A stretch of DNA of 64,000 bases from an uncultured Thermoanaerobaculia bacterium (GCA_964599475.1 CAZRFU010000016.1:17619-81618); one strand, 5' to 3'; numbered from the stretch's first letter, positions 1,499 through 60,903 are shown. Notes: generated by a model from the letters alone, not told the origin. Program-made: numbers and translations.

Positions 1499-1627
1499 CC
1501 CGGGCTCTTCCTCGTTCACCAGCTCCTCCCCGGAGACCTGACTGCCTTGCCGGCGGCCGGCGCCCCACCGAACAGCGTGGCCCGCTGCCAGCGAGATTGT
1601 CGATCTGGGTTCTGAAAGGAGCTTCAG

Positions 1628-6973: not shown

Positions 6974-9334
6974 ATGAACCGCCTACCATGCTCACCCGGC
7001 CAATGGCCCGAGCTCTCGCGGCTACTCGACGAGGCGCTCGAAAGTCATCAGCAGGATCGAGGAATATGGCTCGAGCGCGTCGGCCGAGAGCGGCCGGACC
7101 TCATCGAGGCCCTGCGAACGGTGCTCGAGGCCGAGGTAGGCGAGCAGGCCGATGCCGCCCAATTCGAGTCCCCGTCCTGGGATCTCCTCGATGACGAGGA
7201 TGCTCTTGGCCAGGGAACCGTCGTCGGGCCCTACACGCTCGAAGCCGAGTTGGGAGTGGGCGGGATGGGGACCGTCTGGAGCGCCCACCGCAGCGACGGC
7301 GCGTACCAACGCCGGGTTGCACTCAAGCTGCCCCACCTCTGCGGGCCGGGGGCGGATCTCCGGGCTCGGTTTCGGCGCGAGCGGGACATCCTCGCCCGGC
7401 TGTCGCATCCCAACATCGCGCAGTTTCTCGACGCCGGCGTTGCTGCCGACGGGCGCCCGTATCTTGCACTCGAGTTGGTCGAGGGGCGGTCGATTCTCGA
7501 GGCTGCTGGGTGCGCTCGGCTCAGCGTCGACGGGCGCTTGCGGTGGTTCCGGGCGGTGCTCGACGCCGTCGCCTACGCCCATGCCAGGCTCGTGGTCCAC
7601 CGCGACATCAAGCCCTCCAACGTCCTGGTCGGCGCCGCCGGCTCCGTCAAGCTGCTCGACTTCGGGATCGCCAAGCTGCTCGAGCCGACCGCCTCCGAGC
7701 GCGGCGGCGCCGCGCAGCTCACCCGCGCGGACGTCAGACCAGCGACTCCCGACTACGCCGCTCCCGAGCAGCTCGACGGCGGTGATGTGACCGTGGCGAC
7801 CGACGTGTGGGCGCTCGGTGCGCTGCTGTTCGAGTTGCTGACCGGTGGCCGACCTTTCTCCCGCGCCGAGCGTCTGAGTAGCCAACGCGACCGCTTCGTA
7901 CCGTTCTCCTCGCGCCGCGTCGACCCGACGCACGCTCGGGCGTGCGGCTTGTCGACGAAATCCCTCGCCAGGCGACTCGAAGGCGATCTCGACGCGATCC
8001 TCGCCAAAGCTCTCGCTTTCGAGCCGACCGATCGGTACGCCTCGGTCGAGGCATTCGCCGGCGACCTCGACCGCCACCTTGCTCTCCAGCCGATCGTCGC
8101 GCGGCGGCCGAGCGCATTGGTGCGGGCGCGCCTGTTCGCGCGCCGTCACCGAGTCGGACTGGTGTCGTTCGGCCTCCTCCTCGCGTCGGTGACCGCAGGC
8201 ATGCTCGGGGTACTGCTGCAGGCCCGGGCGACCTCGGCGGCCGCCCGGCGCGCCGAAGCGACCAAGGACTTCCTCGTCGAGGTCTTCAAAGGCAGCGACC
8301 CGCGGGTTGCGCGCACCAAGCCCCGCGGCGAGATCACCGCTCGAGAGCTGCTCGACATCGCGGCTCACGATCTCGAAGTCGGGTTCGAGGATGATCCCGA
8401 GACCCGGATCGAGCTGTTGGGGCTGACCGCCACGATCTACACCTACCTCGACGAGATCGGTGCCGCACGGAGGCTGGCCGAGATGGGACGGCTCGAGGGG
8501 CAGCGCCTGCTCGAGGCCGACGATCCTCGCCTGCTCGACCCTTGGCTTCTCGAGATCTGGCTTGCCCTCGAGGCCGGGGACCTCGAGTCCGCGCGGACAC
8601 GGCTCACCGAGGTCGACCGACACCTTACGGTCTACGGGCTCGATCACACGGTCCACCGCGCCGGTTACCACCTGGCCGCCAGCGACATCGCTGCGGCGCA
8701 GGGCGATCGAGACGGCCGGAAGCAAGAGCTCGAGCAGGCCCGGGCTCTTTATGCTGCGGTGGCTCCACGCGACTCAGGGCATGCCGCAGCGCTGTCGAAT
8801 CTCGGCCTGTTGCGTCTGGGGGGTGGTGAACCCACGGAGGCTCTGACCCTGCTCGACCGCGCCCTGACGGTGGCCCAGACTGCCACCAGCGATGTGGGTA
8901 CCGACCTCGCCCGGATTCACGCTCGTCGAGGCCGGGTGTTGCTGGAGCTCGCGCGCTTCGAGGACGCCCGGGAAGCGCTCGACACGGCTCTGGCGCTGTA
9001 CGCCGCGACGGTCGGCACAGACCATGTGACCACCTGGGCCCCGCGCGCCGCCCGTGCCCGAGCGGCAGCCTACCTCGGCCAAGCCATCGACGCCGACCGC
9101 GACCTCGGTTCTCTCGAAAGCCTCCCGGGCTGGCAGGAACCGCGTTTCTCGCGCTACCGTCAGGAGGCCAACTTGCACCGCGGCCTGGCTTTGGCCAGAC
9201 TCGGTCGGCAGCCACAGGCTGCGGCGATTCTCGCCGAGAGCGTCGCAAGCCTGGGCGACGATCCCGAGCTCGAAGCCGAGATCCGCTGGGCTCGGCTCGA
9301 GATCGCAAGCACCCGGTCCGACGCAGGTGGATGA
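6974..9334 (+). CDS. Ser/Thr protein kinase (PknB-like) with one TM helix and extracytoplasmic TPR sensor domain
   Basis: ATG 6974 is 5 nt after the sigma stop; GxGxxG (ELGVGGMGTVW), VALK, HRDIKPSNVLV, DFG, APE motifs; TM LVSFGLLLASVTAGMLGVLL; TPR repeats to the C-terminus. The supplied ORF 6368..9334 is an artefactual extension through the sigma gene. Confidence 0.85.
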   Translation: MNRLPCSPGQWPELSRLLDEALESHQQDRGIWLERVGRERPDLIEALRTVLEAEVGEQADAAQFESPSWDLLDDEDALGQGTVVGPYTLEAELGVGGMGTVWSAHRSDGAYQRRVALKLPHLCGPGADLRARFRRERDILARLSHPNIAQFLDAGVAADGRPYLALELVEGRSILEAAGCARLSVDGRLRWFRAVLDAVAYAHARLVVHRDIKPSNVLVGAAGSVKLLDFGIAKLLEPTASERGGAAQLTRADVRPATPDYAAPEQLDGGDVTVATDVWALGALLFELLTGGRPFSRAERLSSQRDRFVPFSSRRVDPTHARACGLSTKSLARRLEGDLDAILAKALAFEPTDRYASVEAFAGDLDRHLALQPIVARRPSALVRARLFARRHRVGLVSFGLLLASVTAGMLGVLLQARATSAAARRAEATKDFLVEVFKGSDPRVARTKPRGEITARELLDIAAHDLEVGFEDDPETRIELLGLTATIYTYLDEIGAARRLAEMGRLEGQRLLEADDPRLLDPWLLEIWLALEAGDLESARTRLTEVDRHLTVYGLDHTVHRAGYHLAASDIAAAQGDRDGRKQELEQARALYAAVAPRDSGHAAALSNLGLLRLGGGEPTEALTLLDRALTVAQTATSDVGTDLARIHARRGRVLLELARFEDAREALDTALALYAATVGTDHVTTWAPRAARARAAAYLGQAIDADRDLGSLESLPGWQEPRFSRYRQEANLHRGLALARLGRQPQAAAILAESVASLGDDPELEAEIRWARLEIASTRSDAGG

Positions 9335-10108: not shown

Positions 10109-13072
10109 ATGGCCACCTCCCGGCAGGAAGAGCGAGCGCGCTGGTTCGTCGAGCTGTGCGACCTCGAGCTGCGGGAGCGTGACCGGGCTCTCGAGGAGAT
10201 CGCCGCGAGCGATCCCCAGCTGGCGGCCGAGGTCGAAAGGCTGCTCCGCCTCGATCGGCAATCGAACGGGCCGATCGAAGCCCTGCGCGAGGAACTTGGA
10301 CCGGCCCTGCACTCGGCGTTTTCCGAACTGGAGGTGGCAGACCTTGCGCCGCCGGAACGGCTCGGCCCGTGGCGCCTGGGCGAAAGACTCGGTGCGGGCG
10401 GCATGGGCGAGGTCTGGGCCGCCGAACGCGCCGATGCCGGCTTTGCCCAGCGCGCTGCCATCAAGCTGGTCCGCTCGAACATGGCGAGCGAGGAGGTGGT
10501 GCGCCGCTTCGCCATCGAACGCCGGGCTCTCGCACGGCTCGAACATCCCGGCATCGCCCGGCTGCTCGACGGCGGTGTCGCTCCCGATGGTCGCCCGTGG
10601 TTCGCCATGGAGCGGGTCGACGGCATCGCGATCACGACCTTCGCCGACACCAACGCACTCGACCTCGGGTCGCGATTGCGACTCTTCCTCGCCGTCATCG
10701 AGTCCGTCGCCTTTGCTCACCAGGCGCTGGTGGTCCATCGCGACCTCAAGCCCTCGAACATCCTGGTGACCGCGGCCGGCGCGCCCAAAGTCCTGGACTT
10801 CGGCCTGGCCAAGCTGCTCGACCCGGCGGAAGGCAACCAGGACCAGCCGGAGCTCACGCACACCAACCTGCTGGCGCTGACCCCGGCTTACGCCGCTCCA
10901 GAGCAATTCCTCGGCGAGCCGACCACCACCGCAACCGACGTCTACGCCCTGGGCGCGGTTCTGTTCGAGCTCCTCACCGGGCAATTGCCGCACCAGCGGC
11001 GAAGCCCTTCGCTCGCCGTGCTGCTCGAAGGGCTCGAGCGCGAGACCCTCGAGCGCCCTTCTCAGCGCCTCAGGCGTTCGGCTGCCAGCGAACGCCCGGA
11101 TCGAGCCGCCAGGCTGCTCGAGGGAGACATCGACACCATCGTGCTGCAGGCTCTCGCCCGCGAACCGGCCCGCCGCTACCCAACCGTGGCGGCGCTCGGC
11201 GCGGACATCCGCGCCCACCTCGAAGGGCGGCCGATCGCGGCACGGCCGGCCTCGGCCTTCTACCTCTTCTCCAAGTTCCTCGGGCGGCACCGAGCGGCGG
11301 CGATCGCTGCGCTGACCGTGGTGTCGGCCCTGAGCGTCAGCCTGATCGTCTCGTTGCAGCAGACTGCGGTCGCTCGCGCCGCCCTCGCCACGGCACAGAG
11401 CGAGGCCCGGCGCGCCGAGAGGGTCAAGGACTTCCTAGTGTCCGTGTTCGAACAGGCCGACCCAACCCACACCCAAGGAGCCGACGTGCCGGCGCGACAG
11501 ATCCTCGCCGAGGGCGCGGCCCAGCTGAGGACCAACCTCGCCGACGAGCCCGAGGTCCGCGCCGAGCTCTACGACACCGTCGCGCAGATCCAGACCAGCC
11601 TGGGATTGCTCGAAGAGGGGCTGGCCAACGCCGAAGCCGGCGCCGCAGAGCGCAAGCGGCAGTTCGGTGACAGCTCGCGCGAGTACGCCCGCAGCCGGGT
11701 GACGGTGGGCCGGGCCAAGCTGCAGCAGGCCCAGTTCGCTGGCGCGCTGGAGGACTTCGACCATGCCCTATCGGTGTTCGAAGCCAGGGTGGATACCCGC
11801 TCGCTCGACTTCGCGAAGGCACTCTCCGGTCGGGCCGAGGCCCGTCTGATGCTTGGCGACCCGGAGCAGGCGCGCACCGATCAGCTCGCCGCCAATGCGA
11901 TCTATGCCGCGGCCCTCGGGCCTGAGGATCGGGAAACCCTCGGCCAGCTCTCGAATCTCGCCGTGATCGAAACCCGGTCCGGAACCGTCCTCGAGGCCGC
12001 GCGGATCTTCCGCCAGGTGCTGGCCGGCCTCGAACGCGTCGAGCCCCCGGACTCGGCACGTGTGCTCGATGTCGTCCTCAATCTCGCCACCGCCCTCGAC
12101 ACCGCCGGCCAGAGCACAGAGGCCTTGGCGCTGTTCGAACGCGTCGTCGCCGGTCGCCGGAGGATCTACGGGGACCAACACCCCCTGCTTGCCGAAGCGC
12201 TGGTGATCGCCGGGCTCAGGATGTCGCGAGCCGGCCGTGGCGACGACGCACTTCGAGCGCTCGACGAGGCCCGCGCGATCTACGCACCGCTCGATCACCC
12301 GGAGCTCGGTACCGTCGACAACTTCAGCGGCCTGACCTACGCCGACCTGGGGCGGTTCGCCGAAGCCGAGGCGGCGTTCGCGGCAGCGTCGGCTCGGTTC
12401 TCACGGGACCTCGGCCCCGCGCACGTGATGACGGTTTCCGCCAACGCCAATCGGGCCAACGTGGTGAGTGAGCTCGGTCGCGAGGACGAGGCAGTCGAGC
12501 TGTTCGCCGAGGCGGTCGCCCAGCTGCGTGTGCTCCAGCAGCTCGACAACCCGAGGCTGTTGCGCATGCGACTGAACTGGGGAGCGGCGCTGCGCCGCGC
12601 CGGACGCTTTGCCGAAGCGCGGTCGGTGCTGGAAGCCGCGATGGCGGCCGCGCGCGAGCAGTTCGGAGGCGACCATCTGCGCATTGCCGAGGGCTCGGTC
12701 GAGCTCGCCCGCCTCGAGCTGGCTGCGAGAACGTCCACCGCTCCCGAGGTCGCTGCCTCACTGCTCGCCGAGGCGGAGCGGATCGCCGAGAACAACCCGC
12801 CCAACGCCGCCTTGGCCCGCAATCTGGCGGCAGCGAGGGCGGAACTGCGGGAGGCAAACGGTTCCTCGGCACCCATCACGGCCCCGACCACCCTGCCATC
12901 GACCCCGCTCGAACCCGTCCGAGAAGATCAGGCCATTGTCGAGGCTGGGGGACGGGCTCTACCATCTCCTGGCGTGCGGCGCGATCGAGGTGGAGATCAG
13001 CTCCGGCTCGGTGTCCGCGGTAGACGTCTTCGCCGACCGGCTGCGATTCGAGCTGCTGGATCTGCTGCGTGA
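10109..13072 (+). CDS. Ser/Thr protein kinase with TM helix and long extracytoplasmic TPR domain. The 3' end is uncertain: a G5 run at about 12945 separates it from a tag-encoding frame
   Basis: ATG 10109 (MATSRQEERARWFVELCDLELRER...); ELGAGGMGEVW, AIK, HRDLKPSNILV, DFG, APE; TM AAAIAALTVVSALSVSLIVSL; TPR repeats; divergent from sigma gene 9452..10057. Confidence 0.8.
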   Translation: MATSRQEERARWFVELCDLELRERDRALEEIAASDPQLAAEVERLLRLDRQSNGPIEALREELGPALHSAFSELEVADLAPPERLGPWRLGERLGAGGMGEVWAAERADAGFAQRAAIKLVRSNMASEEVVRRFAIERRALARLEHPGIARLLDGGVAPDGRPWFAMERVDGIAITTFADTNALDLGSRLRLFLAVIESVAFAHQALVVHRDLKPSNILVTAAGAPKVLDFGLAKLLDPAEGNQDQPELTHTNLLALTPAYAAPEQFLGEPTTTATDVYALGAVLFELLTGQLPHQRRSPSLAVLLEGLERETLERPSQRLRRSAASERPDRAARLLEGDIDTIVLQALAREPARRYPTVAALGADIRAHLEGRPIAARPASAFYLFSKFLGRHRAAAIAALTVVSALSVSLIVSLQQTAVARAALATAQSEARRAERVKDFLVSVFEQADPTHTQGADVPARQILAEGAAQLRTNLADEPEVRAELYDTVAQIQTSLGLLEEGLANAEAGAAERKRQFGDSSREYARSRVTVGRAKLQQAQFAGALEDFDHALSVFEARVDTRSLDFAKALSGRAEARLMLGDPEQARTDQLAANAIYAAALGPEDRETLGQLSNLAVIETRSGTVLEAARIFRQVLAGLERVEPPDSARVLDVVLNLATALDTAGQSTEALALFERVVAGRRRIYGDQHPLLAEALVIAGLRMSRAGRGDDALRALDEARAIYAPLDHPELGTVDNFSGLTYADLGRFAEAEAAFAAASARFSRDLGPAHVMTVSANANRANVVSELGREDEAVELFAEAVAQLRVLQQLDNPRLLRMRLNWGAALRRAGRFAEARSVLEAAMAAAREQFGGDHLRIAEGSVELARLELAARTSTAPEVAASLLAEAERIAENNPPNAALARNLAAARAELREANGSSAPITAPTTLPSTPLEPVREDQAIVEAGGRALPSPGVRRDRGGDQLRLGVRGRRLRRPAAIRAAGSAA

Positions 13073-13121
13073 CGGCTTCGAAAGTGGCGACACCAGCGCA
13101 TGGTCGCTCGCGGTGCCGTAG
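12930..13121 (+). other. orphan coding segment in the kinase +1 frame ending ...DVFADRLRFELLDLLRDGFESGDTSAWSLAVP* (fourth copy of the C-terminal tag)
   Basis: 18-nt identity (ttcgaaagtggcgacacc) with the tag-coding end of the 1628..3157 gene; reads cleanly only downstream of the G5 run. Confidence 0.45.
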
Positions 13122-13256
13122 CCGCGGCCATCCGGCCTGCGGGCTATCATCTGCTCGCGGTGACCGAGATGCCGAGCGCGGACTCGCCATTCGCAACGGT
13201 CGCGGCGCAGGCCGAGAGCAGAGAAGCCGACGAAGGCCCGGCGGGTTCAGCCGAGT

Positions 13257-15592: not shown

Positions 15593-15987
15593 TGCTACGC
15601 CTCGCCGTCGCCGTCGCCGCCGGCGGGGCCCTCGGCGCCCTGCTGCGCTGGGGTGTCGGTCTGGCGGGCCTCGAGCTCGCGCGTCGGCTCCCGGAGCCGG
15701 CGCGCTGGTGGCCTCTCGGCACCCTGGCAGCCAACGCCCTCGGCTGTTTTGCCATCGGCCTGCTCGTCGGGATCTTCGAACACCGCTGGGCAGCCCCGAG
15801 CGGGTGGCGAGCCTTTCTGGTGGTCGGGCTCCTCGGCGGATTCACCACCTTTTCGAGCTACGCTCTCGAGGCGGTGCAGATGGTCCAAGACGGCCGGGCC
15901 CGCGAAGCCCTCGGCTACGTGCTGGTTTCAACCGTCGGCGGGGTGCTGCTGGTCGCCGCCGGCTGGACCCTCGGCCGAGCGACGTGA
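15592..15987 (+). CDS. crcB: fluoride ion channel CrcB/FluC
   Basis: 131 aa, 4 TM, motifs GTLAANALGCFAIG and GLLGGFTTFSSYALE typical of CrcB. Confidence 0.85.
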   Translation: MLRLAVAVAAGGALGALLRWGVGLAGLELARRLPEPARWWPLGTLAANALGCFAIGLLVGIFEHRWAAPSGWRAFLVVGLLGGFTTFSSYALEAVQMVQDGRAREALGYVLVSTVGGVLLVAAGWTLGRAT

Positions 15988-16005
15988 GCAGTTGCCTACG
16001 CACCC

Positions 16006-16068
16006 TGCACCCCGGCCGTGCACCCCGGCCGATGAAAATCCGGTCTTCAGTACCCGGTACCTGGTACC
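16006..16068. repeat. partial MITE-family copy (reverse orientation): tandem 13-bp direct repeat TGCACCCCGGCCG x2 + GATGAAAATCCGGTCTTCAGTACCCGGTACCTGGTACCC
   Basis: Reverse complement matches the left arm and adjacent core of element B. Confidence 0.45.
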
Positions 16069-16105
16069 CTCGTGGGCGCCTGCCAACCGTGTAAGCTCAC
16101 TCGCG

Positions 16106-16582
16106 ATGCGACTCGCCAAGTACTCGATACTCGCCGCCGCCGGCATGCTCCTGACCTGGGGCTGTGGCCCAGGCGAAAGCACGGGCGAACCGGCCGCAGC
16201 CCCCAACGAGCTGGTGACCGAAGAGGTCGCTGCACCGGTTGACGCGGCAGTCGATGTCGACGCCGACCCCAAAGCAATCGCCCGCAGTCACGAGAGCGTC
16301 GGCGGCGTGTTGCCCTCGGACTTTCCCGCAAGCTTCACTCTGCCGCGACCCGCGAGCATCATCGATCTGAGCTCGACCGACGACGGTTGGAGCACCGTAG
16401 TGCTTCGTACGCCCTCGTCACCCGGCCAGGTCGCAGGATTCTTCGCCCGCGAGCTGCCCCGGGGTGGCTGGACTGAATACGGTGGGCTGTGGATGCGCGA
16501 CCGCACCCAGGTCCGGGTGACGGTGAAGGTGCTCCCCGACGGCGCCCGGGTCCAGCTGGACTACCGCACCTCCGCCAGCTAG
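16106..16582 (+). CDS. hypothetical lipoprotein/secreted protein
   Basis: MRLAKYSILAAAGMLLTWGC lipobox-like N-terminus; start inside supplied ORF 15653..16582. Confidence 0.5.
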   Translation: MRLAKYSILAAAGMLLTWGCGPGESTGEPAAAPNELVTEEVAAPVDAAVDVDADPKAIARSHESVGGVLPSDFPASFTLPRPASIIDLSSTDDGWSTVVLRTPSSPGQVAGFFARELPRGGWTEYGGLWMRDRTQVRVTVKVLPDGARVQLDYRTSAS

Positions 16583-16642
16583 GAGGACTCGGCGGGGCGG
16601 CCCGGTCGGACGTGAATGGCGCCGTCCGAGCCCGAGGACCAA

Positions 16643-16770
16643 GGTACCGGGTACCAGGTACTCGTCGGAGCGCGAAAGCCACCCTCGGACGAAGCGCGCG
16701 AACGCCCGTCCATGTCGACCCGACGGGACGCCCGCCCTCCGGCTGGTCCCGGGTACCGGGTCCCGGGTCC
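16643..16770. repeat. intergenic heptamer-repeat pair (GGTACCGGGTACCAGGTAC ... GGTCCCGGGTACCGGGTCCCGGGTCCC) between convergent genes
   Basis: Read directly; related to the MITE arms but with a different internal sequence. Confidence 0.35.
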
Positions 16771-16776
16771 CTATCT

Positions 16777-29674: not shown

Positions 29675-30573
29675 TGCGGGTCCTTCGCACCCCCGCCGAA
29701 CGTTTCGTCGGCCTCCCGGACTTTCCCTGGGTGCCGCGCGAGACCGAGGTCTCCGGGCTGCGCATGTGCCACGTCGATGCCGGCGAGGGTCGGCCGATCC
29801 TGCTGCTCCACGGTGAGCCGACCTGGTCGTTCCTCTACCGCACCATGATCCCGGTGCTGGTCGAGGCGGGATTTCGGTGCCTGGCACCGGACCTGATCGG
29901 CTTTGGCCGCTCCGGCAAACCGGCCGACATCGGTGCGTACTCCTACGCCCAACACGTCGCCTGGCTCGCTGAGTGGATCGAAGCCAACGATCTTTCGGAC
30001 CTGGTCTTGGTCGCCCAGGACTGGGGCTCTTTGCTGGGACTCAGGTTGGTGGCGGAACACCCAGGGCGTTTTGCCGCCGTGGTGATCGCCAACGGCTTCC
30101 TGCCCACCGGCGACCAGCGGGTGCCGGCGGTGTTTCGGCTGTGGCAGAACTTCGCGCGGTGGTCACCCTGGTTCCCAGTCGGGCGCATCGTGCAGTGGGG
30201 ATCAGCCACCACCCTGCCGCCCGAGGTCGTCGCCGCGTACGACGCACCGTTCCCGACCTCGGCCCACAAAGTCGCCGCCCGGGCCTTCCCGCGCCTGGTG
30301 CCCACCACCCCCGACAATCCCGCCAGCAGCGCCAACCGCGCCGCGTGGAAGGTCCTCGAAGGGTGGCACAAGCCCTTTCTGACCGCCTTCGGCAGCCGCG
30401 ATGCGATCTTTCGCGGCGCCGATCGGGTGCTCCAACAGCGGATCCCCGGCGCCAAGGGCCAGCCCCACACGATCATCCGCGGCGCCGGCCACTTCATCCA
30501 GGAAGACCGCGGGCCGGAGCTGGCGCGAGTGATTGCGGAGTTTGTGCGCGGGCTGGAAGGGGTTGGGGGTTAG
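29674..30573 (+). CDS. alpha/beta hydrolase, haloalkane dehalogenase-like
   Basis: HGEPTWSFLYR, nucleophile elbow AQDWGS, C-terminal GAGHFIQED; TGATG overlap with the upstream gene. Confidence 0.8.
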   Translation: MRVLRTPAERFVGLPDFPWVPRETEVSGLRMCHVDAGEGRPILLLHGEPTWSFLYRTMIPVLVEAGFRCLAPDLIGFGRSGKPADIGAYSYAQHVAWLAEWIEANDLSDLVLVAQDWGSLLGLRLVAEHPGRFAAVVIANGFLPTGDQRVPAVFRLWQNFARWSPWFPVGRIVQWGSATTLPPEVVAAYDAPFPTSAHKVAARAFPRLVPTTPDNPASSANRAAWKVLEGWHKPFLTAFGSRDAIFRGADRVLQQRIPGAKGQPHTIIRGAGHFIQEDRGPELARVIAEFVRGLEGVGG

Positions 30574-30588
30574 GGGTTAGGGGTTAGG
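30565..30588. repeat. (GGGGTTA)x3 heptamer microsatellite spanning the dehalogenase stop codon; G-quadruplex-capable
   Basis: gggggttaggggttaggggttagg read directly. Confidence 0.8.
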
Positions 30589-30599
30589 CTCCGTGCAGA

Positions 30600-30800
30600 G
30601 GCTGTCGGCGGGTTGCTACGAGCACCATCGGTCCGTGGTCGCCACTCGAGGGTGATCGCGTGCCGGCCGGCAGGAGCGCGCAGGGCGAGGAAGGCGTGGT
30701 CGGCGATCGCCACCTCGAGCGGCCCACCCCCTACGGTCGAAGCCCGCCAACCCGGCCACGCCGGTTCGGTCACCACCACCCATCCGTCACTCTGCATCGA
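30600..30800 (-). pseudogene. possible 3' gene remnant (C-terminal fragment ...GWVVVTEPAWPGWRASTVGGGPLEVAIADHAFLALRAPAGRHAITLEWRP*)
   Basis: Protein-like translation with no plausible N-terminus, abutting the MITE-like element. Confidence 0.25.
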
Positions 30801-30885
30801 CACTTCGAGAGCCAAGCGGTTCGGCGCCTGCCGACGGGCGACGACTTGCCCGCTGGGATTGCCAACCTCGGCCGGCGGCGCGCCG

Positions 30886-31059
30886 GGTGCACCACGGAGA
30901 CATGGGGAACTGCTCAGAAAATGGGTACCGGGTACCAGGTACCGGGTACTGAAGGCCGGATTTTCATCCGCTGGGGTGCACCACGGAGGCATGGGGAACT
31001 GCTCACAGATTGCCCCGAACGCCACTCCGACAAGTACCCGATACCCGGTACCCGGTACC
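30886..31059. mobile_element. MITE-like element B: heptamer-repeat inverted termini (GGGTACC GGGTACC AGGTACC GGGTAC ... GTACCCG ATACCCG GTACCCG GTACC), conserved core GGGGTGCACCACGGAGGCATGGGGAACTGCTCA, plus an upstream partial core copy
   Basis: Read directly; left arm 30923-30949, right arm 31034-31059; homologous to 35606..35756 and, in opposite orientation, to 16006..16068. Confidence 0.55.
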
Positions 31060-31131
31060 TTGCAAGCAGTGCGCGGACGGCTCGATCGTTCCTCCAGCCG
31101 GGGCGCACCACCGAGGGATCCACGGCAACGA

Positions 31132-32775
31132 CTAATCGTTCTGCATCAGGCCGCGGATCCGCCCACCGGGCTCGATGCGGACACGCCGCGCCGCGGGATC
31201 CTTGGGGAGTCCCGGCATGGTCATGATGTCGCCCGCAAGCGCCACGTAGAACCCGGCGCCGGCGGACAGCCGCACCTCGCGGATGGTGGCGATATCGCCA
31301 GGCGCCGGCCGCCCGCGTTTGGCCGGATCGTCGCCGAGGGCCAGGTGCGTCTTGGCGACACACACCGGCAGGTCCGGCCCCTCGATCGCGATCGCGTTGG
31401 CGAGGTCCTTCTTGGCCTTGGGGGTCAGCACCACGTCACTGACACCCCACGCGGTACGACCGATCAGCTTGAGCTTCTCCTCGGGGTGGACATCGAGCGG
31501 GTAGAGATGCCGGACATCCACCGGGTGAGGCTGCGCGGCCAGGACTTCGGCGACGGCGTCGGCGAGCTCGAGGGAACCATCACCTCCCTGGGCGAAGCCG
31601 TCACACGCCGCCACCGGCGTACCGCGGTCACGACCATGGGCGCGCACGATGTCGAGCTCCGCATCCGAATCGGTGGCGAAGCGGTTGAGGGCGACCACCG
31701 CCGGCACGCCGAACACCGCCAACGTCTCGAGGTGTTTGTCGAGCACGTCGAGGCCCTTGCGCAGCGCCGCTTCGTTGGGATCCCCAAGGGTTCCCGCGGC
31801 CGCGCCACCGTGGTGTTTGAGGGCCCGCAGGGTCGCGACGATCACCGCCGCGTTGGGGGCGAGGTCCTTGCGCCTTGCGACGATGTCGAGGTACTTTTCG
31901 CCACCGAGGTCGCAGCCGAAGCCACCTTCGGTGACCACGACATCGGCGTGGGCGAGTGCAATCCGGCTCGCGACCACACTCGAGCAGCCGTGGGCGATGT
32001 TGGCGAACGGCCCGCCGTGCACGAACGCCGGCCCTCCTTCGCGGGTCTGCACCAGGTTCGGCATGTGGGCGTCGCGCAGCAGGGCGGTCATCGCCGCAGC
32101 CGCCTGGATGTCGCTCGCGCGGACCGCCGAGCCGTCCGGGCGCCGACCGATGACGATCTTGCCGAGCCGGCGCTCGAGGTCGGCGAGGTCGTCGGCGAGG
32201 CAGAAGATCGCCATCACTTCGCTCGCGGCGGTGATGTCGAAGCGGGTCTCGCGCGGCACGCCGTGCACCGGGCCGCCGAGGCCGATGATCGCGTGCCGCA
32301 ACGCCCGGTCGTTCATGTCGAGCACGCGCGGCCAGGTCACGGTGCGCGCATCGATCGGCTCGCCGAAGTGCAACGCGGCGTCGAGCAGCGCCGCCAGCAG
32401 ATTGTGGGCCGCCGAGATCGCGTGGAGATCACCGGTGAAGTGCAGGTTGATCGCGTCGGCCGGCTCGATCGTCGCGAGCCCGCCGCCGGTGCCACCACCC
32501 TTGACCCCGAACACTGGGCCGAGCGAGGGTTCACGCAGGGACGGCACCGCGAGCTTGCCGCGTTTGCGCAAACCCATGGCGAGCGCAATCGACATCGAGG
32601 TCTTGCCTTCGCCCGCGGGCGTCGGGTTGATCGCAGTGACGAGGACCAGTTGGCCTCGACGGGCATCGGCTCGGGGTGCAGCCGCGATCTTGGCGCGGTG
32701 GGGACCCCACGGGAGGACGACGTCACGGGCGAGACCGAGCTCGTCCGCAACCGCTTCGATTGGACGCAGTGTCAT
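31132..32775 (-). CDS. fhs: formate--tetrahydrofolate ligase
   Basis: 547 aa; PTPAGEGKTT...GGGLATIEPADAINLHFTGD. Confidence 0.95.
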   Translation of the reverse strand: MTLRPIEAVADELGLARDVVLPWGPHRAKIAAAPRADARRGQLVLVTAINPTPAGEGKTSMSIALAMGLRKRGKLAVPSLREPSLGPVFGVKGGGTGGGLATIEPADAINLHFTGDLHAISAAHNLLAALLDAALHFGEPIDARTVTWPRVLDMNDRALRHAIIGLGGPVHGVPRETRFDITAASEVMAIFCLADDLADLERRLGKIVIGRRPDGSAVRASDIQAAAAMTALLRDAHMPNLVQTREGGPAFVHGGPFANIAHGCSSVVASRIALAHADVVVTEGGFGCDLGGEKYLDIVARRKDLAPNAAVIVATLRALKHHGGAAAGTLGDPNEAALRKGLDVLDKHLETLAVFGVPAVVALNRFATDSDAELDIVRAHGRDRGTPVAACDGFAQGGDGSLELADAVAEVLAAQPHPVDVRHLYPLDVHPEEKLKLIGRTAWGVSDVVLTPKAKKDLANAIAIEGPDLPVCVAKTHLALGDDPAKRGRPAPGDIATIREVRLSAGAGFYVALAGDIMTMPGLPKDPAARRVRIEPGGRIRGLMQND

Positions 32776-35605: not shown

Positions 35606-35756
35606 GGGACCGGGGACCAGGGACCCGGGACCCGGGATACCAGAGACGGGCACTTGATTTCATCCCCCGGGGTGCAGCACCCAGGGGTGCATGGGAACTG
35701 CTCAGAAGGATGCCCTCACCGCTCCGGCGAGTACCCGATACCCGGCACCCGGTGCC
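35606..35756. mobile_element. MITE-like element C (same family as 30886..31059): GGGACC-type heptamer arms flanking the same core; partial core copy follows at about 35775-35815
   Basis: Direct alignment to element B over about 140 bp. Confidence 0.55.
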
Positions 35757-35823
35757 ACGCCGGTGGCGCACAGACGGTCCGATTTCATTCAACCTGGGCG
35801 TACCACCGAAGGCCCATGGGCAA

Positions 35824-37503
35824 CTACACAAAGAGGCGCGGCGGGGCCTTGGCCTGGTAGTCACCGTCGCGCAGCTCCTCGCCGTCAGGGGTGCCGAAGC
35901 GGCCGGGCGCGAGGAAGGCGAGGATGCGATTGCGGCCGTTGCCCTTGGCGGCGTAGAGCGCCTGGTCGGAAAGCTCGAGCAGCTCCTTGCCGGACTCGAC
36001 GAACAGGCCCGGGAAGGTCGCCACGCCTCCCGACATGGTGACCGGCAGCCGTTCGCCCTCGAACCAGATCGGCAGCGCTTCGACCTCGGCGCGCAGACGT
36101 TCGACCACCGCGATCGCCTCCTCGGCCCCGAGTCCTTCGAGCAACAACGCAAACTCCTCGCCGCCCCACCTGGCGCACAGGTCGTCGTCGCGCAGCCGAC
36201 TGCGCAGCACCGCAGCAGCGTGGATCAGCGCCTGATCACCTGCCGCGTGGCCGTAGACGTCGTTGATGCGCTTGAAGAAATCGAGGTCGACCAGCGCCAC
36301 CGACACACTCTCGCCGCGCTCGGCGGCGCGCTCGAACGACTCCACCAGCCGCCGTTCGAACACCCGCCGCAGCGCCGCGCCCGTCAACGGATCCTCCCGC
36401 GCCTCGCGTCCCAGCACTCCGCGGTGGAGCCGCGCTCCGAGCTGCGGCAGCAGCCGTTCGATCAGCTCGGTCGACTGGCGGCCGAGGCGCCGCGGATCAC
36501 ACCACAACCGCACCACGGCAAGGGGTCGTCCCTCTGCCTCGAGCTCGTGCTCGAGCAGTTTCCAGCCCGAACGCCGGTGGATCCCCGGCAACATCGGCGG
36601 CGCCGTCGGCGGTTGGGGTCGGCCGACCACCAGGGAACCATCCGGGTCGCCCGCCCACTCCTGGCCCTCGCGACCATGCGCGACCACCTCGAGATGGAAC
36701 CACTCGATCGGCACAGCGTGGCGCAGCTCGCGCCAGATGCTCGCCACCGCCTCCTCCAGATCCGAGGCGCCGCGGCTGAGCCGTTCGCCGGCGCGGCTGA
36801 GGCGTTCGAGCTCGCGGCCGCGCTGGCGCTCCCGCGTCGCCCGACGCCGCGACTCGAGCAGCTCGAGAGCTGCGGCTGCGGCCACCACGGCGACCGCATA
36901 CCTCCCCAGCGGCGGGCTCGCGGCAGCGGCCCAGATGATGATGTCGGCCACCGTCCGCACGGCGGCCCTGGGCCCGGGATCGAGCCGATTCGTCGCGGCG
37001 AGCCCCGCGGTTCCCGCAAGGCCGGCGGTGATCGCAACGATCAGCAGCTGCGCCGGCTCGGAGGCCCCCACCGCGGTCGCGGCCCGAGACGCCATCGACG
37101 CTGCAGCCACCGACGCGATCACCACGGCAAGCGCGACTCCGGCGCAGCGCAATCGCTCGCGGCGTCGGTCGACACCATCGACCCACCACGCGACGATGGC
37201 CCCGCCGAGGCTCCCAACTGCGGCGAGCAGCAACGCGGTGCGCACCAGCCCGTCGGCGACGAGGGGGGCAATCACCAGCGCACCCCAGCCGAGGCCCGGT
37301 GTGGTCGCACCCCGCGCAGCCACGGCGGTGATCACCACCCCTGAGGTCACCAGGATCCAAGCCCAGTCGATCCGAGACCGGTCGAGCATCCACAACGACA
37401 CGACCGCAATGGTCACGAGGGCGACGAGGACCAGCCGCCGACGATCGGCACGGCTGCCTGGCGAAAGTCCGGCGAGTGCCCGGGGCCGCACCACCTCACT
37501 CAT
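35824..37503 (-). CDS. membrane-anchored diguanylate cyclase (GGDEF)
   Basis: N-terminal multi-TM region; C-terminal RWGGEEFALLL with RxxD I-site-like motif. Confidence 0.8.
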   Translation of the reverse strand: MSEVVRPRALAGLSPGSRADRRRLVLVALVTIAVVSLWMLDRSRIDWAWILVTSGVVITAVAARGATTPGLGWGALVIAPLVADGLVRTALLLAAVGSLGGAIVAWWVDGVDRRRERLRCAGVALAVVIASVAAASMASRAATAVGASEPAQLLIVAITAGLAGTAGLAATNRLDPGPRAAVRTVADIIIWAAAASPPLGRYAVAVVAAAAALELLESRRRATRERQRGRELERLSRAGERLSRGASDLEEAVASIWRELRHAVPIEWFHLEVVAHGREGQEWAGDPDGSLVVGRPQPPTAPPMLPGIHRRSGWKLLEHELEAEGRPLAVVRLWCDPRRLGRQSTELIERLLPQLGARLHRGVLGREAREDPLTGAALRRVFERRLVESFERAAERGESVSVALVDLDFFKRINDVYGHAAGDQALIHAAAVLRSRLRDDDLCARWGGEEFALLLEGLGAEEAIAVVERLRAEVEALPIWFEGERLPVTMSGGVATFPGLFVESGKELLELSDQALYAAKGNGRNRILAFLAPGRFGTPDGEELRDGDYQAKAPPRLFV

Positions 37504-38492
37504 CGACCAGCGTCTCTCGCTGTCGGCAGCAGATCAAAACCGTTGGCTGCCCGCACCCCCCGCAAAACGGCCTGCTCGACCACCAGCTGGGCGAGAACAC
37601 CGAGTTGGTGCGGGTGCGACGGAACACCCCCGGTTGCCAGAATTGCGAGTAAATCGCCGTCGTAGAGCGACAGCGCCGGCGCGAGCACTCGATGAAACGC
37701 GCCGAAGGCGATTCTGGCCGCCTGGCCGAGCGCCAGACGAGGCAACGCGGCGTTGGTCATGATCACGGCGAGCGTCGTGTTGCCGGCCGCCTCCCACGGA
37801 TGACCCTGCCCCGCCGGCTGGACCAACACCGTGCGAGCATCGATCATCTCGAGGGAGTCGGCGGCACGACGACACCCGGCCACGATGGTTCCCGATTGTG
37901 GGTCGATCACGTCACCGAAGGCGTTGACCGCAACGACCGCCGCGACCTCGAGCTCACCGACGCGAATCCGCGCGAACCCGATCCCTCCCTTCATGCCGCA
38001 CTGCCGCCCGTTGGCTTTGCCGACGGTCGCGCCGGTGCCGGCGCCGACACTGCCGATCTCCACGGCGCCGGCCGAGGAGCTCTGGAGGGCTGCTCGCACC
38101 AAATCGGCAGTCGGCCGTGCTCCCGGGTCGCCGAAACCCAGGTCGAAGAGGATCGCCGTCGGCACCAAGGGTACCTTCCCGACCCCGGTATCGAACCCCA
38201 CGCCCGCCCTCTCGAGGTACTTCACCACCTCGTCTGCCGCGCTCAACCCGAAGGCACTGCCTCCCGCCAACACGAACGCGTGAACCGGGGGGCCGAGGTG
38301 CCAGGGGTTGACCAGGGCATCGAGCTGTCGCGTCCCGCTCGCGCTGCCCCGGACTTCGGCCACTGCGCTGGCGCCTGCGGGGCACAAGATCACGGTGACT
38401 CCGGTTCCACCGGCCGCATCGGTGCCGTGTCCGAGCGTGAAACCCGGCACCGCCAGCTCGAGAGACGCCTCGACGTGCACTCCGTCCACCAC
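37500..38492 (-). CDS. peptidase family S58 (DmpA/L-aminopeptidase D-Ala-esterase-like)
   Basis: 330 aa, Gly-rich DmpA-like profile; ATGA overlap with the DGC start. Confidence 0.65.
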   Translation of the reverse strand: MVDGVHVEASLELAVPGFTLGHGTDAAGGTGVTVILCPAGASAVAEVRGSASGTRQLDALVNPWHLGPPVHAFVLAGGSAFGLSAADEVVKYLERAGVGFDTGVGKVPLVPTAILFDLGFGDPGARPTADLVRAALQSSSAGAVEIGSVGAGTGATVGKANGRQCGMKGGIGFARIRVGELEVAAVVAVNAFGDVIDPQSGTIVAGCRRAADSLEMIDARTVLVQPAGQGHPWEAAGNTTLAVIMTNAALPRLALGQAARIAFGAFHRVLAPALSLYDGDLLAILATGGVPSHPHQLGVLAQLVVEQAVLRGVRAANGFDLLPTARDAGR

Positions 38493-49138: not shown

Positions 49139-51501
49139 GGCCCCTCGAGCTGGTCTTGGAAGGCTTTCGATCCTGGGGAGATCGGGCGACGTTCGATTTC
49201 CGCAATCGTCACCTGGTCGCAATCGTCGGGCCGATCGGCAGCGGCAAGAGCTCCTTGCTCGACGCCATCGCCTTCGCCCTGTACGCGCGCACGCCCCGAA
49301 TCGAGAAGGAAGTGGCCGCGCTGATCCGCCACGGCTGCGACGAGGCACGGGTCGAGCTGCTGTTTGAAGCCGGTGGCTCAGCCTACCGCGCCATTCGCGT
49401 GATCAAGCGCAAGGGCGCCAATCAACATGCGCTGTGGCGTTACGCCGACGACGCCGGAGCCGGTGAGCCGATCGAGCGGCTCGATCGTGCGCGGGAAATC
49501 GACGAGCGGCTTCACCAGGTGGTGGGGCTCGACTTCACCGCCTTCTGCCGCTCGGTACTGCTCGCCCAGAACCAGTTTGCACGGTTCCTCGAGGCGCCGC
49601 CGGCCGAACGCGACGCCGTGCTCAAGGGCCTTTTCGGCTTCGAGCGACTGGACGCGATGCGCGAGCTCGCTCGGCAACGGGAAGAACGCTGCAAGGCCGA
49701 GCTCGGCGGGCTCGAGCGCCGCCTGTCCGAGCTGAGCCAGCTGGAGCAGCAGCTTCCCGGTCTCGAAGCCCGCACCGCAGCGGCGGCAGCTCGTGTCGCC
49801 CAGTTGCGCCAGGCAGCGCCCGACTTCGAGCGGATCCAAGCCGCCCGCCAGGAAGCAAACGAGCTCGAACAGCAGACCCGCAAGGCGCGGCAGGGTCTCG
49901 CCGCGATCGAACGCGATCTCCCACCGCCGCAACAGGTCACCGACCTCGCCTCGGGCGCCGCACGGCGCCAAGCAACCCTCGACCAGACCAACCGAGCGCT
50001 GGCGCAGATCGAGGCGGCTCTGCTGCGCTGCGAAGAAGCCGAAGCGACGACCCTCACCGCCATCGCGGCCCAGACCTCGGCCCTGCACCACCTCGGCCTC
50101 GAACGCGCCGAAGACTCGCTGCGCGCTGCCATCGCCGCCGACCACGACTGCCGCGCCGCACTCACCGCGGCCGAGGAGAAGCTCGAGCGCGCGAGAGAGA
50201 CACTGCGCCGCACCGAGCACGGGCAGTACGCCGCCCTGCTGCGAGAAGACCTCGAGCACGGCCAGCCGTGCCCGGTCTGCGACCAGCCGGTGCCGGTGGT
50301 CCCGCAGGCGCGCCCGGTCCCCGAGCTGGACCATGCCCGCACCCAGAGGACGCTGGCCGAGAACGAGCGGGCCCTCCGGGCCCAGGCCCTGGAGCGCGCT
50401 CACCGCGAGGCCGCCGCCGCCGAGGCCAAACGCAACGCAGCACAGTCCGCGCTCGAGGCGTGGCAGGCCTCGAACCCCGACGTGGTAGCGAGCGCTGATC
50501 CCGATCCGCAGGCCGCCCGTGCCGCCGCTACTGCCGACCTCGAGCAGATCCGCCGCGAGCGCGCCGCTCTGCGCCTCGATCGAGACCGAGCCCGGACGCG
50601 CCTCGCCGAAGCCCAGGCTGCGGTGGCCGGCATCGAAGCCGAGGTGTCCGAGCTCGTACGGCGCCTCGAACGGCTCGCCGGCAGACTCGACCTGGACCAG
50701 CTTCCGGAAGGCCTAGTAGCAGCTCGGACGCAGCTCCACGACGAGCTCGAGCGGCGCATCGCCGGAGCCGAGGCCACCATCGCGGAAACGAGGGCGGCCA
50801 CGGCCGCCCTGGACAGCCGGATCCTGGCGTTGTGCACCGCCGTGGGTCTCGAACCGACAACCTCCTTCGACGGGGCCCTGGCCGAGGCCGAGCGCTCCCT
50901 CACCCGCCACGAGACGGAGCTCGCAGCCCTGCGAGACCGACTCCGCGAAGCCGAGCTACGGCGCGGCGAGCTGGACCACTGGCGCGAACAGTTGTCGATC
51001 TGGAGTGGCCTGGCCGAGGACCTGCGCCCTTCGCGCCTGCTTCGTCACCTGCTCGACGAAGAGCGCCGGCGTTTGGCGGCAATCGCTGCAGAGCGCTTCG
51101 AAAACCTCTCAGGGGGCCGCTACCGGTTCAGCCCGGATGGCAGCTTCGCCGTCGTCGATCTCGCCAACGCCGAGGAGCTGCGCCGCCTCGACACCCTCTC
51201 CGGTGGCGAGACCTTCCTCGCCGCGCTGGCTCTCGCCCTGGCCCTTGCCGAGATCGTCGCCGGTGGTGGCGGACGCCTCGACGCGTTTTTCCTCGACGAG
51301 GGCTTCGGCAGCCTCGACCAGGAGCACCTGCGACTGGCCCTCGACGGCATCGAGCACCTCGTCGTCGATGCCCCTGGGCGTCTGGTGCTCCTGGTCAGCC
51401 ACGTGCCCGAGGTCCAGGAGCGCTTCGACGACGTCATCTCACTCGACCGCGAACCGCTCCAGGGCGCGTCGATCATCCGCTCCGGGGCGACGCCACCGTA
51501 G
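49135..51501 (+). CDS. sbcC: SbcC/Rad50-like ATPase (short, 789 aa)
   Basis: GTGA overlap with sbcD; Walker A GPIGSGKSS; zinc hook CPVCDQP; C-terminal LSGGETFLAALALAL...DEGFGSLD. Confidence 0.8.
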   Translation: MRPLELVLEGFRSWGDRATFDFRNRHLVAIVGPIGSGKSSLLDAIAFALYARTPRIEKEVAALIRHGCDEARVELLFEAGGSAYRAIRVIKRKGANQHALWRYADDAGAGEPIERLDRAREIDERLHQVVGLDFTAFCRSVLLAQNQFARFLEAPPAERDAVLKGLFGFERLDAMRELARQREERCKAELGGLERRLSELSQLEQQLPGLEARTAAAAARVAQLRQAAPDFERIQAARQEANELEQQTRKARQGLAAIERDLPPPQQVTDLASGAARRQATLDQTNRALAQIEAALLRCEEAEATTLTAIAAQTSALHHLGLERAEDSLRAAIAADHDCRAALTAAEEKLERARETLRRTEHGQYAALLREDLEHGQPCPVCDQPVPVVPQARPVPELDHARTQRTLAENERALRAQALERAHREAAAAEAKRNAAQSALEAWQASNPDVVASADPDPQAARAAATADLEQIRRERAALRLDRDRARTRLAEAQAAVAGIEAEVSELVRRLERLAGRLDLDQLPEGLVAARTQLHDELERRIAGAEATIAETRAATAALDSRILALCTAVGLEPTTSFDGALAEAERSLTRHETELAALRDRLREAELRRGELDHWREQLSIWSGLAEDLRPSRLLRHLLDEERRRLAAIAAERFENLSGGRYRFSPDGSFAVVDLANAEELRRLDTLSGGETFLAALALALALAEIVAGGGGRLDAFFLDEGFGSLDQEHLRLALDGIEHLVVDAPGRLVLLVSHVPEVQERFDDVISLDREPLQGASIIRSGATPP

Positions 51502-51537
51502 CAGCCCGTGGTGCGCCCCGGGTCCCGGGTCCCTGAG

Positions 51538-57500: not shown

Positions 57501-57763
57501 AAGGCACGGTTGGTCTGGATCAGCGACGGCGTGGCGATCCGCACCACCCGGCGCAGGGCATCCTCGCGAGCGTCCGCAGGGATCGTTGGGTTGAGCCGCG
57601 CAATAGCGTCCCGCAGCCGGCCGGCGAGCAAGACGTCGCCAAACGAATCCCTCTCCGCCGCCGGTTCGCCCGGCGCCAGGTGTGGCCCGTGGCCGACGGC
57701 GTAGCCGAGACCAGCAAACCAGTCGAGGGCGGCGGATTCGACGATGGATTCGTCGAGACTCAT
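54575..57763 (-). CDS. hsdR: Type I restriction enzyme R subunit (intact)
   Basis: 1062 aa; N-terminus [21 protein letters not shown]; SF2 helicase motifs (GSGKS, DEAH). Confidence 0.9.
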
Positions 57764-58289: not shown

Positions 58290-58800
58290 ATGGTCGCGCT
58301 CCGGGGCCCCAACGGGGCCCAATGAGATAGCCCAGGGCAACGCCCTGGGTAGGCAAGCCCCCGTCCCTTCCCAAGCCCTGAAAGGGCGAAACATCCCTCC
58401 GCGACGATCCTGCGCCGCAACCGCCCCGGAGTTCCGCCCTTTCAGGGCTCGGAACCAATGGGGGGTGCCGCGGTACCCAGGGTGTCGCTTCGCTCTACCC
58501 TGGGCTATCTCATCTCGCCCCTTTGGGGCTTCGGATCGGCAGCCCGGCACCGGCGGGGCACCAGTGGATCGCCCCAACGACCGGCCCGCGATGCAGCACC
58601 CCGCCGTCGGGTCCCCGTGGCCCCAACCGGCACAGGTGGATCGCCCCAACGCCCGCCAGTGGCACGGCACCGCACGGATGCTCGGCTCCGGGGCCCCAAC
58701 GGGGCCCAATGAGATAGCCCAGGGCAACGCCCTGGGTTGGGCAAGCCGGTCCCATTCCCGAGCCCTGAAAGGGCGAAACATCCCAGGCCGACCCGGGTCC
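58290..58800. repeat. REP/BIME-like palindromic repeat cluster (about 4 units in both orientations, core CCCAGGG-loop-CCCTGGG hairpin within ...aatgagatagcccagggcaacgccctgggt...gccctgaaagggcgaaacatccc)
   Basis: Near-identical copies at 58296, 58683 and 60285; inverted copies at 58425 and 60420. Confidence 0.75.
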
Positions 58801-60269: not shown

Positions 60270-60512
60270 AGGCTCGGCACCGCACGGATGCTCGGCTCCG
60301 TGGCCCCAACGGGGCCCAATGAGATAGCCCAGGGCAACGCCCTGGGTGTCGGGCAAGCCCACCGACTCCCCGAGCCCTGAAAGGGCGAAACCTCCCGCGA
60401 CGGTTCGCCCCGCCCCCTCGGAATTCCGCCCGTTCAGGGCTCCGGACCTCCAGGGGTGCCGCTGTACCCAGGGTGTCGCTTCGCTCTACCCTGGGCTGTC
60501 TCATCTCGTGAG
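60270..60512. repeat. REP/BIME-like repeat cluster (one forward and one inverted unit) abutting the hsdR duplication junction at 60512/60513
   Basis: Same units as 58290..58800. Confidence 0.75.
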
Positions 60513-60514
60513 CT

Positions 60515-60903
60515 GGGTTCACCACCAACCAGTCGTTGGCGGCGGGATTGGTGAAGTCGACCAGCCGCACGTGGTCGCCGGCGATCGACCCGTCCGGCCG
60601 GCGGTATTCCACCTCCACGCCGTTGCGCAGCAGCTTGTGGAAGGCACGGTTGGTCTGGATCAGCGACGGCGTACCGATCCGCACCACTCGGCGCAGGGCA
60701 TCCTCGCGAGCGTCCGCAGGGATCGTTGGGTTGAGCCGCGCAATAGCGTCCCGCAGCCGGCCGACGAGCAACACCTCGCTGAACGAATCGCGCTCCGCCT
60801 CCGGTTCGCCGGGGGCGAGGTGAGGCCCGTGGGCGACGGCGTAGCCGAGACCGGCAAACCAGTCGAGGGCGGCGGATTCGACGATGGATTCGTTCAAGCT
60901 CAT
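60515..60903 (-). pseudogene. hsdR 5' fragment (first ~130 codons), a direct duplicate of 57374..57763; reads through into REP sequence
   Basis: Translation [26 protein letters not shown]...DWLVVN then diverges; nucleotide-level near identity with the intact hsdR 5' end. Confidence 0.8.

Follow-up and report, generated by a model that had tools for sequence, protein, structure and literature searches.

Positions 30886 to 31059 of the 64,000-nt stretch of DNA analyzed here (hereafter the window; 68% GC) carry short heptamer arrays in inverted orientation around a core that recurs at other loci, which raises the question of what kind of repeat this is. The preliminary description read it as a MITE, with the arrays as inverted termini. 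The repeats at this position and at related loci are real and non-random, and the MITE reading fails. The best explanation, to which we attach about even confidence, is that non-coding modules in gene 3' flanks form a family specific to this lineage. These modules have two components: (i) short heptamer arrays, with GG(T/G)(A/C)CC-N repeated ~3-4.6 times, which belong to an already described and widespread class, and (ii) an organism-specific linker box of ~50 nt (GCAGTTSCC...GGTGCRCCCC...GATGAAA(A)TC). The broader suggestion of a small non-coding repeat family without a transposase is borne out.

Modules follow the orientation of the upstream gene

When each copy is read in the direction of the gene that ends beside it, a full module (~200-250 nt) runs from the stop codon through box 1, a G-rich array, the junction GGTACTYGYCGGAG, box 2 and an inverted array, and half (element C) and mini (element E) forms are also present. 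Elements A, B and D are alignable over their full length. The five elements and their parts are as follows.

30884..31134, - strand: element A, full module plus truncated third box, downstream of the formate-tetrahydrofolate ligase (FTHFS) gene
31079..31131, - strand: A box 1 (s3), immediately downstream of the FTHFS stop, containing GGTGCGCCCC (nhmmer E 4e-13)
31033..31059, - strand: A proximal heptamer array, GGTACCG GGTACCG GGTATCG GGTACT, G-rich on the upstream-gene strand
31008..31032, - strand: A junction, GGTACT-TGTCGGAGTGG, a junction motif common to B and D
30955..31007, - strand: A box 2 (s2), TGAGCAGTTCCCCATGCCTCCGTGGTGCACCCCAGCGGATGAAAATCC
30923..30950, - strand: A distal heptamer array, opposite in orientation to the proximal array and followed by CATTTTCTGA on the - strand
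30884..30917, - strand: A third box, truncated (s1), with 97% identity to s2 over 32 nt
35606..35826, - strand: element B, full module, between the GGDEF gene stop (TAG 35824-35826) and the ABC-ATPase gene start (35548)
35775-35826, - strand: B box 1 (s5)
35730-35756, - strand: B proximal array
35707-35729, - strand: B junction
35652-35706, - strand: B box 2 (s4)
35606-35637, - strand: B distal array, GGTCCC-type
15985..16069, + strand: element C, half module (box 2 and one array), upstream gene crcB
15985-16046, + strand: C box 2 (s6), with a 13-nt tandem duplication
16049-16069, + strand: C array, single
16580..16771, + strand: element D, full module with diverged boxes, after the lipoprotein gene stop (TAG 16580-16582) and convergent with atpC
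16580-16640, + strand: D diverged box 1 (nhmmer E 6e-4)
16643-16662, + strand: D proximal array
16663-16744, + strand: D junction and an unrelated middle segment
16745-16771, + strand: D distal array
51499..51535, + strand: element E, mini module: sbcC-like gene stop (TAG), CAGCCCGTGGTGCGCCCC and two GGGTCCC units

All copies are intergenic, as first described. At all five loci the module starts at the stop codon or no more than ~17 nt from it, and at all five its orientation is that of the upstream gene. The further claim that some copies lie between divergent genes was not borne out: all five follow a stop codon, and divergent gene pairs flank none. The upstream genes are genuine, as indicated by Pfam matches and codon-position GC. 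A box separates the G-rich proximal arrays from the stop, at a distance of 60-72 nt; the array of element E follows its stop after 17 nt.

Element A runs on the - strand from the FTHFS stop codon (TAG 31132-31134) through box 1, proximal array, junction, box 2 and distal array to the truncated third box. The FTHFS gene (31132-32775, - strand) encodes a protein with at most 63-64% identity to any other in a collection of 5.8 billion proteins, its best matches coming from Corallococcus, Myxococcus and other Myxococcota, so that the lineage is Myxococcota-like and poorly sampled. Because its C-terminus (GLMQND) ends exactly where those of its homologues end (GLMQGE), element A begins right after the native stop codon. 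Exact-protein look-ups for the lipoprotein, atpC, the hydrolase and FTHFS with its predicted start returned no matches.

At its other end, the similarity shown by s1 stops where a YfhO gene remnant starts. This remnant (~30618-30875, - strand; L119 2898-3155) is the C-terminal part of a YfhO-family membrane protein, of which Pfam positions 775-835 of 835 are left, and in the window it carries an additional 44-nt deletion relative to L119. Further along, an (AGGGGTT) array of 4.4 units (30558..30588, + strand) overlaps the stop of an alpha/beta-hydrolase gene on the coding strand. Its unit is another heptamer from the same general class, and the array is telomere-like, G-quadruplex-capable and identical in L119.

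The alignment between A and B on which the original proposal rested is real (160 nt, 73% identity, E 2e-19), although its register, 30962-31117 vs. 35658-35812, is not arm-core-arm. Besides a core and the right arm, it takes in a second, diverged core that extends to the stop codon, and it excludes the left arms, whose heptamers differ (GGTACC in A, GGGACC in B). The extra partial cores proposed outside the full elements are present (30884-30917 and 35775-35830), and an additional core copy at 31079-31131, beside the FTHFS stop, had been missed. The region 16643..16770, previously taken for a trace of heptamers alone, is part of a third full-length element (16580-16771) with diverged cores, while the heptamers noted at 51517..51534 correspond to a tandem array at 51517-51533 (TRF). 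Near 16006..16068, where a partial copy in reverse orientation had been noted, 16018-16069 matches 30930-30981 in reverse orientation with 94% identity over 52 nt.

Elements C and E show reduced forms of the same arrangement, with a single array each. In C, box 2 opens with the crcB stop codon itself (TGA, 15985-15987), which supplies its first three bases. A perfect 13-nt tandem duplication (TGCACCCCGGCCG twice, 16006-16031) lies inside this box and is found in all strains seen. Element E occupies a 36-nt gap between convergent genes and carries the short GGTGCGCCCC motif.

Eight boxes can be aligned, namely s1-s6, the D box and the L119 variant of s3, and all eight are in direct orientation, with GCAGTTSCC, GGTGCRCCCC and GATGAAA(A)TC as common motifs. 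The proposed core recurs, its 16-mer CATGGGGAACTGCTCA giving four matches in the window at up to 3 mismatches vs. 0.5 expected; its palindrome GGTGCACC is perfect only in s1 and s2, variants being GGTGCGCC, GGTACGCC and GGGGCGGCC. RNAalifold applied to the eight boxes returned no convincing conserved fold (6 pairs, -2.6 kcal/mol), with a penalizing covariation term of +0.75 and a compensated change in one pair only. Against Rfam 15, the window gave no matches at the gathering score, and hits with E below 1 were miRNA and lncRNA noise only. Two other readings of the box were discarded: small peptides encoded on either strand, since frames differ among copies, and SECIS, sigma-54 or ECF-promoter elements, on inspection of the spacing and of the stop codons used.

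Profile searches of the window with nhmmer, using both the box and the whole element, revealed no further copies, the best extra match (38111-38141, E 0.28) lying inside a coding region. A box pattern with ~23 specified bases, which finds three sites in the window and one in L119, had no matches in the metagenome_contigs collection, and the organism is therefore absent from that collection. A degenerate pattern, GGTGCAN{5,25}GGNAACTGCTCA, yielded 118 single chance matches in unrelated taxa in genome_contigs and none that were related. Judged by their sequences, the boxes thus look lineage-specific and conserved, without a demonstrable fold. Since boxes and junctions are similar across loci, whole modules have been copied between gene ends.

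Heptamer arrays occur independently of the box

The arrays themselves are well supported. TRF detected period-7 arrays at 30923-30949, 31034-31059, 35606-35637, 16050-16069, 16642-16661, 16745-16771 and 51517-51533, every place named in the preliminary description being among them. Period-7 copy numbers in the window, including the 4.4 of the AGGGGTT array, are 2.4, 2.9, 2.9, 3.7, 3.9, 3.9, 4.4 and 4.6. The pattern GGTACCNGGTACC, at up to 2 mismatches, matches the window 22 times vs. 0.9 expected. Unit sequence differs among copies (GGTACC, GGGACC, GGTCCC). The hexamer GGTACC is its own reverse complement, so any two GGTACC-N arrays are complementary and inverted arms arise automatically. The description of heptamer arms with an inverted right end accordingly holds for the arrays as such and, as regards complementarity, well only for A, whose 27-nt arms are 93% complementary around an 82-nt core. 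The 32-nt arms of D are 75% complementary. In B the arrays are paired in position and not complementary: the left arm consists of GGGACC and the right arm of GGTACC/GGCACC units, which leaves no detectable inverted repeat. Palindromic heptamer repeats can in this way yield MITE-like "inverted termini" as a by-product, a point of caution for annotators. Reading GGTACC as a restriction site (KpnI) was rejected, as the window contains 22 such sites vs. 21.8 expected, 12 of them outside arrays.

Arrays of the same types are found well beyond this organism. At least 3.6 units of GGGACCN (GGKACCNGGKACCNGGKACCNGGKA) occur in 25 viral stretches in IMG/VR, on contigs of 45-70% GC, several of them directly after stop codons or as convergent pairs, and 2.7 units of GGTACCN (GGTACCNGGTACCNGGTAC) occur in 8 viral and at least 120 metagenome stretches spanning 29-74% GC. 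No box homologues were detected in 153 viral and metagenome array loci among the matches listed. The arms are thus a heptamer simple-sequence repeat that is widespread without the box. Among the high-GC loci in the matches listed, 54% of arrays with four or more units are found no more than 50 nt downstream of the stop of an open frame (150 aa or longer), vs. 19% of random positions; the same test over all loci is noisy. For distinct viral arrays, 4 of 22 lie within 20 nt after a stop (ORF of at least 80 aa) vs. 7.7% of random positions, which is a weak test.

Long mixed-heptamer arrays were also observed in unrelated high-GC metagenome contigs (L189 8980-9160 and 10673-10755, L195 479-700, L166 378-470), composed of CTGAACC/CGGTACC/CGGCACC, CTGAGCC, GGGGGCC and GGGAGTC units and often adjoined by GGTACC arrays. 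These mixed arrays indicate that heptamer periodicity is more general than any single unit.

Two published systems resemble these arrays closely. The first is Gmet_H4 of Geobacter metallireducens, with 49 copies of 4×GGGACCG, which its authors labeled 'predicted regulatory RNA elements' of unknown function (Aklujkar et al. 2009, PMC2700814). Many of these copies are +/- pairs lying 40-100 nt apart, and a TAA, TAG or TGA stands 5 nt before the first unit in 15 of 39 alignment rows. The modules described here share with Gmet_H4 the GGGACCN heptamer (in B, D and E), the approximately four units per array, the convergent pairs and the placement of many arrays shortly behind a stop triplet. They differ in that palindromic GGTACC units predominate and in that boxes of 50 nt, conserved between loci, join the arrays, whereas Gmet_H4 consists of bare arrays with short conserved flanks only (CC...GGGAAAA) and has some copies inside genes.

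The second system comprises the heptamers GGGAATC in Xanthomonas and GGGGAYT (STRR) in Nostoc (Rehm et al. 2015, PMC4692102). Four units are preferred in these arrays, which are intergenic, sit on the coding strand 0-50 bp past the stop codon or in some cases across it, and form 70-75 convergent inverted pairs; unit number varies among relatives while the repeat type is kept, and they have no known function. Common to these and to our arrays are head-to-tail 7-nt units with a mode of about four, a stop-adjacent position, convergent pairs and variable unit number. Our arrays differ in unit sequence, in mostly lacking four G3 tracts, and in the box that separates the proximal arrays from the stop. 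The modules thereby add a clear case to the unexplained class of ~4-unit heptamer arrays after stop codons, whose known hosts, Xanthomonas, Nostoc and Geobacter, are now joined by phage and diverse metagenome contigs.

Variable unit number was also apparent between strains of this lineage. Related strains (95-99.9% identical) are represented by short contigs only, from one JGI sample and several SRA runs, with L119 and L296 belonging to the JGI strain (~98.5% identical) and Logan contigs reaching 99.3-99.9% identity at C and 95.6-97.5% at B. In every related contig retrieved the loci are occupied, for all five elements, with no empty sites, and differences consist of whole heptamers or point changes. 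For instance, the distal array of B comprises 4.6 units here and 3.6 in related strains, and that of D 3.9 vs. 1.9 units (14 nt less) in an otherwise identical element, while element E is identical in ten samples. Such whole-heptamer length changes are as expected for replication slippage.

Other differences are of a less regular kind. The first ~20 nt after the FTHFS stop contain nine differences between two strains otherwise identical across the module, element C has two substitutions at the place equivalent to this variable stretch, and box 1 of B has lost 1 nt in one strain. In L277 (2572-2604 vs. window 16059-16090), which is 99.96% identical upstream, the C array is swapped for a degenerate 7-nt-periodic sequence (GTGTCGG GTAGGCC GGGAGGT), and five other contigs end at window position 16047. 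Short-read contigs from several samples likewise end inside B and C, which fits either genomic repeats elsewhere or population variants. The variable post-stop stretches, the L277 swap, these contig ends and the s1/YfhO junction are some signs of local instability.

Competing explanations

The alternative that survives best, though we consider it unlikely, is that the arrays act at the DNA level, as G-quadruplexes, i-motifs, cruciforms or iterated protein sites that affect replication, recombination or transcription rather than RNA. Rehm et al. 2015 (PMC4692102) emphasize the requirements of G4 formation, with which the G3N4 periodicity and the favored length of about four units agree, and rearrangement scars lie beside the elements, in the form of the truncated box with its YfhO remnant and the variable first 20 nt after the stop. 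At least four tracts of G3 or longer are however present in only 2 of 9 arrays (B distal and AGGGGTT), the GGTACC-type arrays being mostly mixtures of G2 and G3, and the strict orientation with the upstream gene is more easily explained by a transcript.

A second possibility, which we regard as very improbable, is a REP- or REPIN-like family mobilized by a RAYT (Y1) transposase, with the box as the REP hairpin and its conserved 5' G(C/T)AG. REP and BIME sequences form hairpins at gene 3' ends and have been proposed to stabilize the upstream mRNA or to act as terminators. The boxes do start with GCAG or GTAG, s1 and s2 contain the short GC-rich palindrome GGTGCACC, and the modules, like the REP/BIME repeats of enterobacteria and pseudomonads, are small and non-coding, with a preference for gene 3' ends and for the gaps between convergent genes. 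Against this, REPs are ~35-nt palindromes of alternating orientation linked to RAYTs, while here direct and weakly structured boxes, which never form inverted doublets, are flanked by heptamer arrays; the palindrome is not conserved, the consensus fold is the poor one given above, and no RAYT-like gene was noticed among the annotated neighbors of any copy in the 64-kb window. The REP-like label given at the outset is therefore valid by position only.

More doubtful still is the initial reading itself, in which the modules would be non-autonomous transposons with the heptamer arrays as terminal inverted repeats and a transposase supplied in trans. Like bacterial MITEs (Correia/NEMIS, ERIC, RUP), they are ~150-250 nt long, ORF-less and intergenic, several copies lie within 64 kb, and contigs break off within B and C, as would be expected of a multi-copy repeat; the long inverted ends, by contrast, are present in A only, B having none and C and E a single array. 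Similarity between copies passes beyond the right arm, so the arms do not delimit the repeated unit. Neither A (AAAAT/GGGTACC...GGTACC/TTGCA) nor B (CGTGAG/GGACC...GGTGCC/ACGCC) is bounded by a direct repeat that could be a target-site duplication. Arm sequence moreover varies among copies, the palindromic simple repeat that makes up the arms occurs in unrelated organisms where the core is missing, each copy is oriented like its upstream gene, and the related strains offer no empty site.

Least probable of all is that the box encodes a small RNA or cis-regulatory RNA with a defined structure, a possibility also raised at first for the core: the recurrent ~50-nt motif, a few compensatory-looking changes seen by eye and a possible GNRA-capped hairpin in s2 (CGGAU-GAAA-AUCCG) are outweighed by the RNAalifold and Rfam results and by the lack of that hairpin in s4, s5 and s3.

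A putative role at gene 3' ends, and other repeats in the window

Returning to modules in gene 3' flanks, their likely role, as far as position and sequence suggest, is to form a 3'-end hairpin that acts as a putative terminator or mRNA stabilizer. The transcript of the upstream gene would include the module as its 3' untranslated tail, and two convergent arrays could then pair into a long hairpin, in which a slip of 7 nt would still allow pairing and register shifts would thus be tolerated. Such a hairpin might end transcription or block 3'-to-5' exonucleases in the manner of REP/BIME sequences. Copies may have spread and become homogenized through recombination or gene conversion between arrays rather than by transposition. 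Since C and E have one array each, pairing of two arrays cannot be a universal mechanism.

The fixed orientation of the modules, the hairpin of A with its CAUUUUCU and the chance-level frequency of canonical terminator-like sites all support such a 3'-end role. Canonical terminator-like sites in the window numbered 5 vs. 6.8, 8 vs. 8.2 and 15 vs. 8.5 relative to shuffled sequence. The hairpin followed by CAUUUUCU after the A distal array was the only terminator-like match in the three element regions scanned, and a GC-rich hairpin with a U-tract, as expected of an intrinsic terminator, is found at A and at none of B, C, D and E. No U-tract follows these four elements, and the whole-window terminator scan had no match in the gap occupied by E. 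The folding results point in the other direction: of the elements folded (A-D), only A (-134 kcal/mol, z = -5) folds better than shuffled sequence, with z between -0.4 and -0.8 for B, C and D (-0.8 for B), which weighs against this explanation. So do the non-complementary arrays of B, the missing conserved box fold and the small number of viral arrays close behind a stop (4 of 22).

Taken alone, the modules are a lineage-specific intergenic repeat family, of which most bacteria have some. If heptamer arrays were a general 3'-end device in GC-rich bacteria without canonical terminators, the modules would be handy test objects. A further idea, which we put forward as distinctly speculative and improbable, is that GGGACC- and GGTACC-type arrays might be the recognition element of a conserved 3'-end system in Geobacter, this organism, metagenomes and phages, for instance of a putative factor that would recognize the 7-nt periodicity and so bring about termination or mRNA protection, with the 50-nt boxes as an added, co-dispersing adaptor in this lineage. 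Were that so, the window would offer a tractable case, in which box-plus-array modules were copied to at least four gene ends.

Other repeats were also observed in the window. A different family is represented at 58290-58545 by a near-perfect hairpin of ~250 nt with arms of ~110 nt (-158 kcal/mol, z = -9.4), with related copies at 58685-58784, at 60295-60394 and at 58462-58517 with 60453-60508, and half copies nearby. This hairpin looks far more MITE-like than the heptamer modules do. The region of this family is bracketed by a 300-nt direct repeat (57376-57675 and 60516-60815; 93% identity, 3.1 kb apart).

Elsewhere, strains that are 99.3-99.9% identical carry an extra segment of ~1.9 kb that is missing from the window (12927-13139 vs. 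L273 5283-7241, also in L274-L276) and contains a gene for a 522-aa beta-helix-like protein between Ser/Thr kinase and DUF5698/DUF2179 genes. Two neighboring paralogous genes, each Ser/Thr kinase plus TPR, share stretches of 69-76% identity (7534-8284 vs. 10672-11446), and a tandem repeat of ~200 nt (~66 aa) is present in four to five copies at 1715-3082, inside the ORF at 1616-3157.
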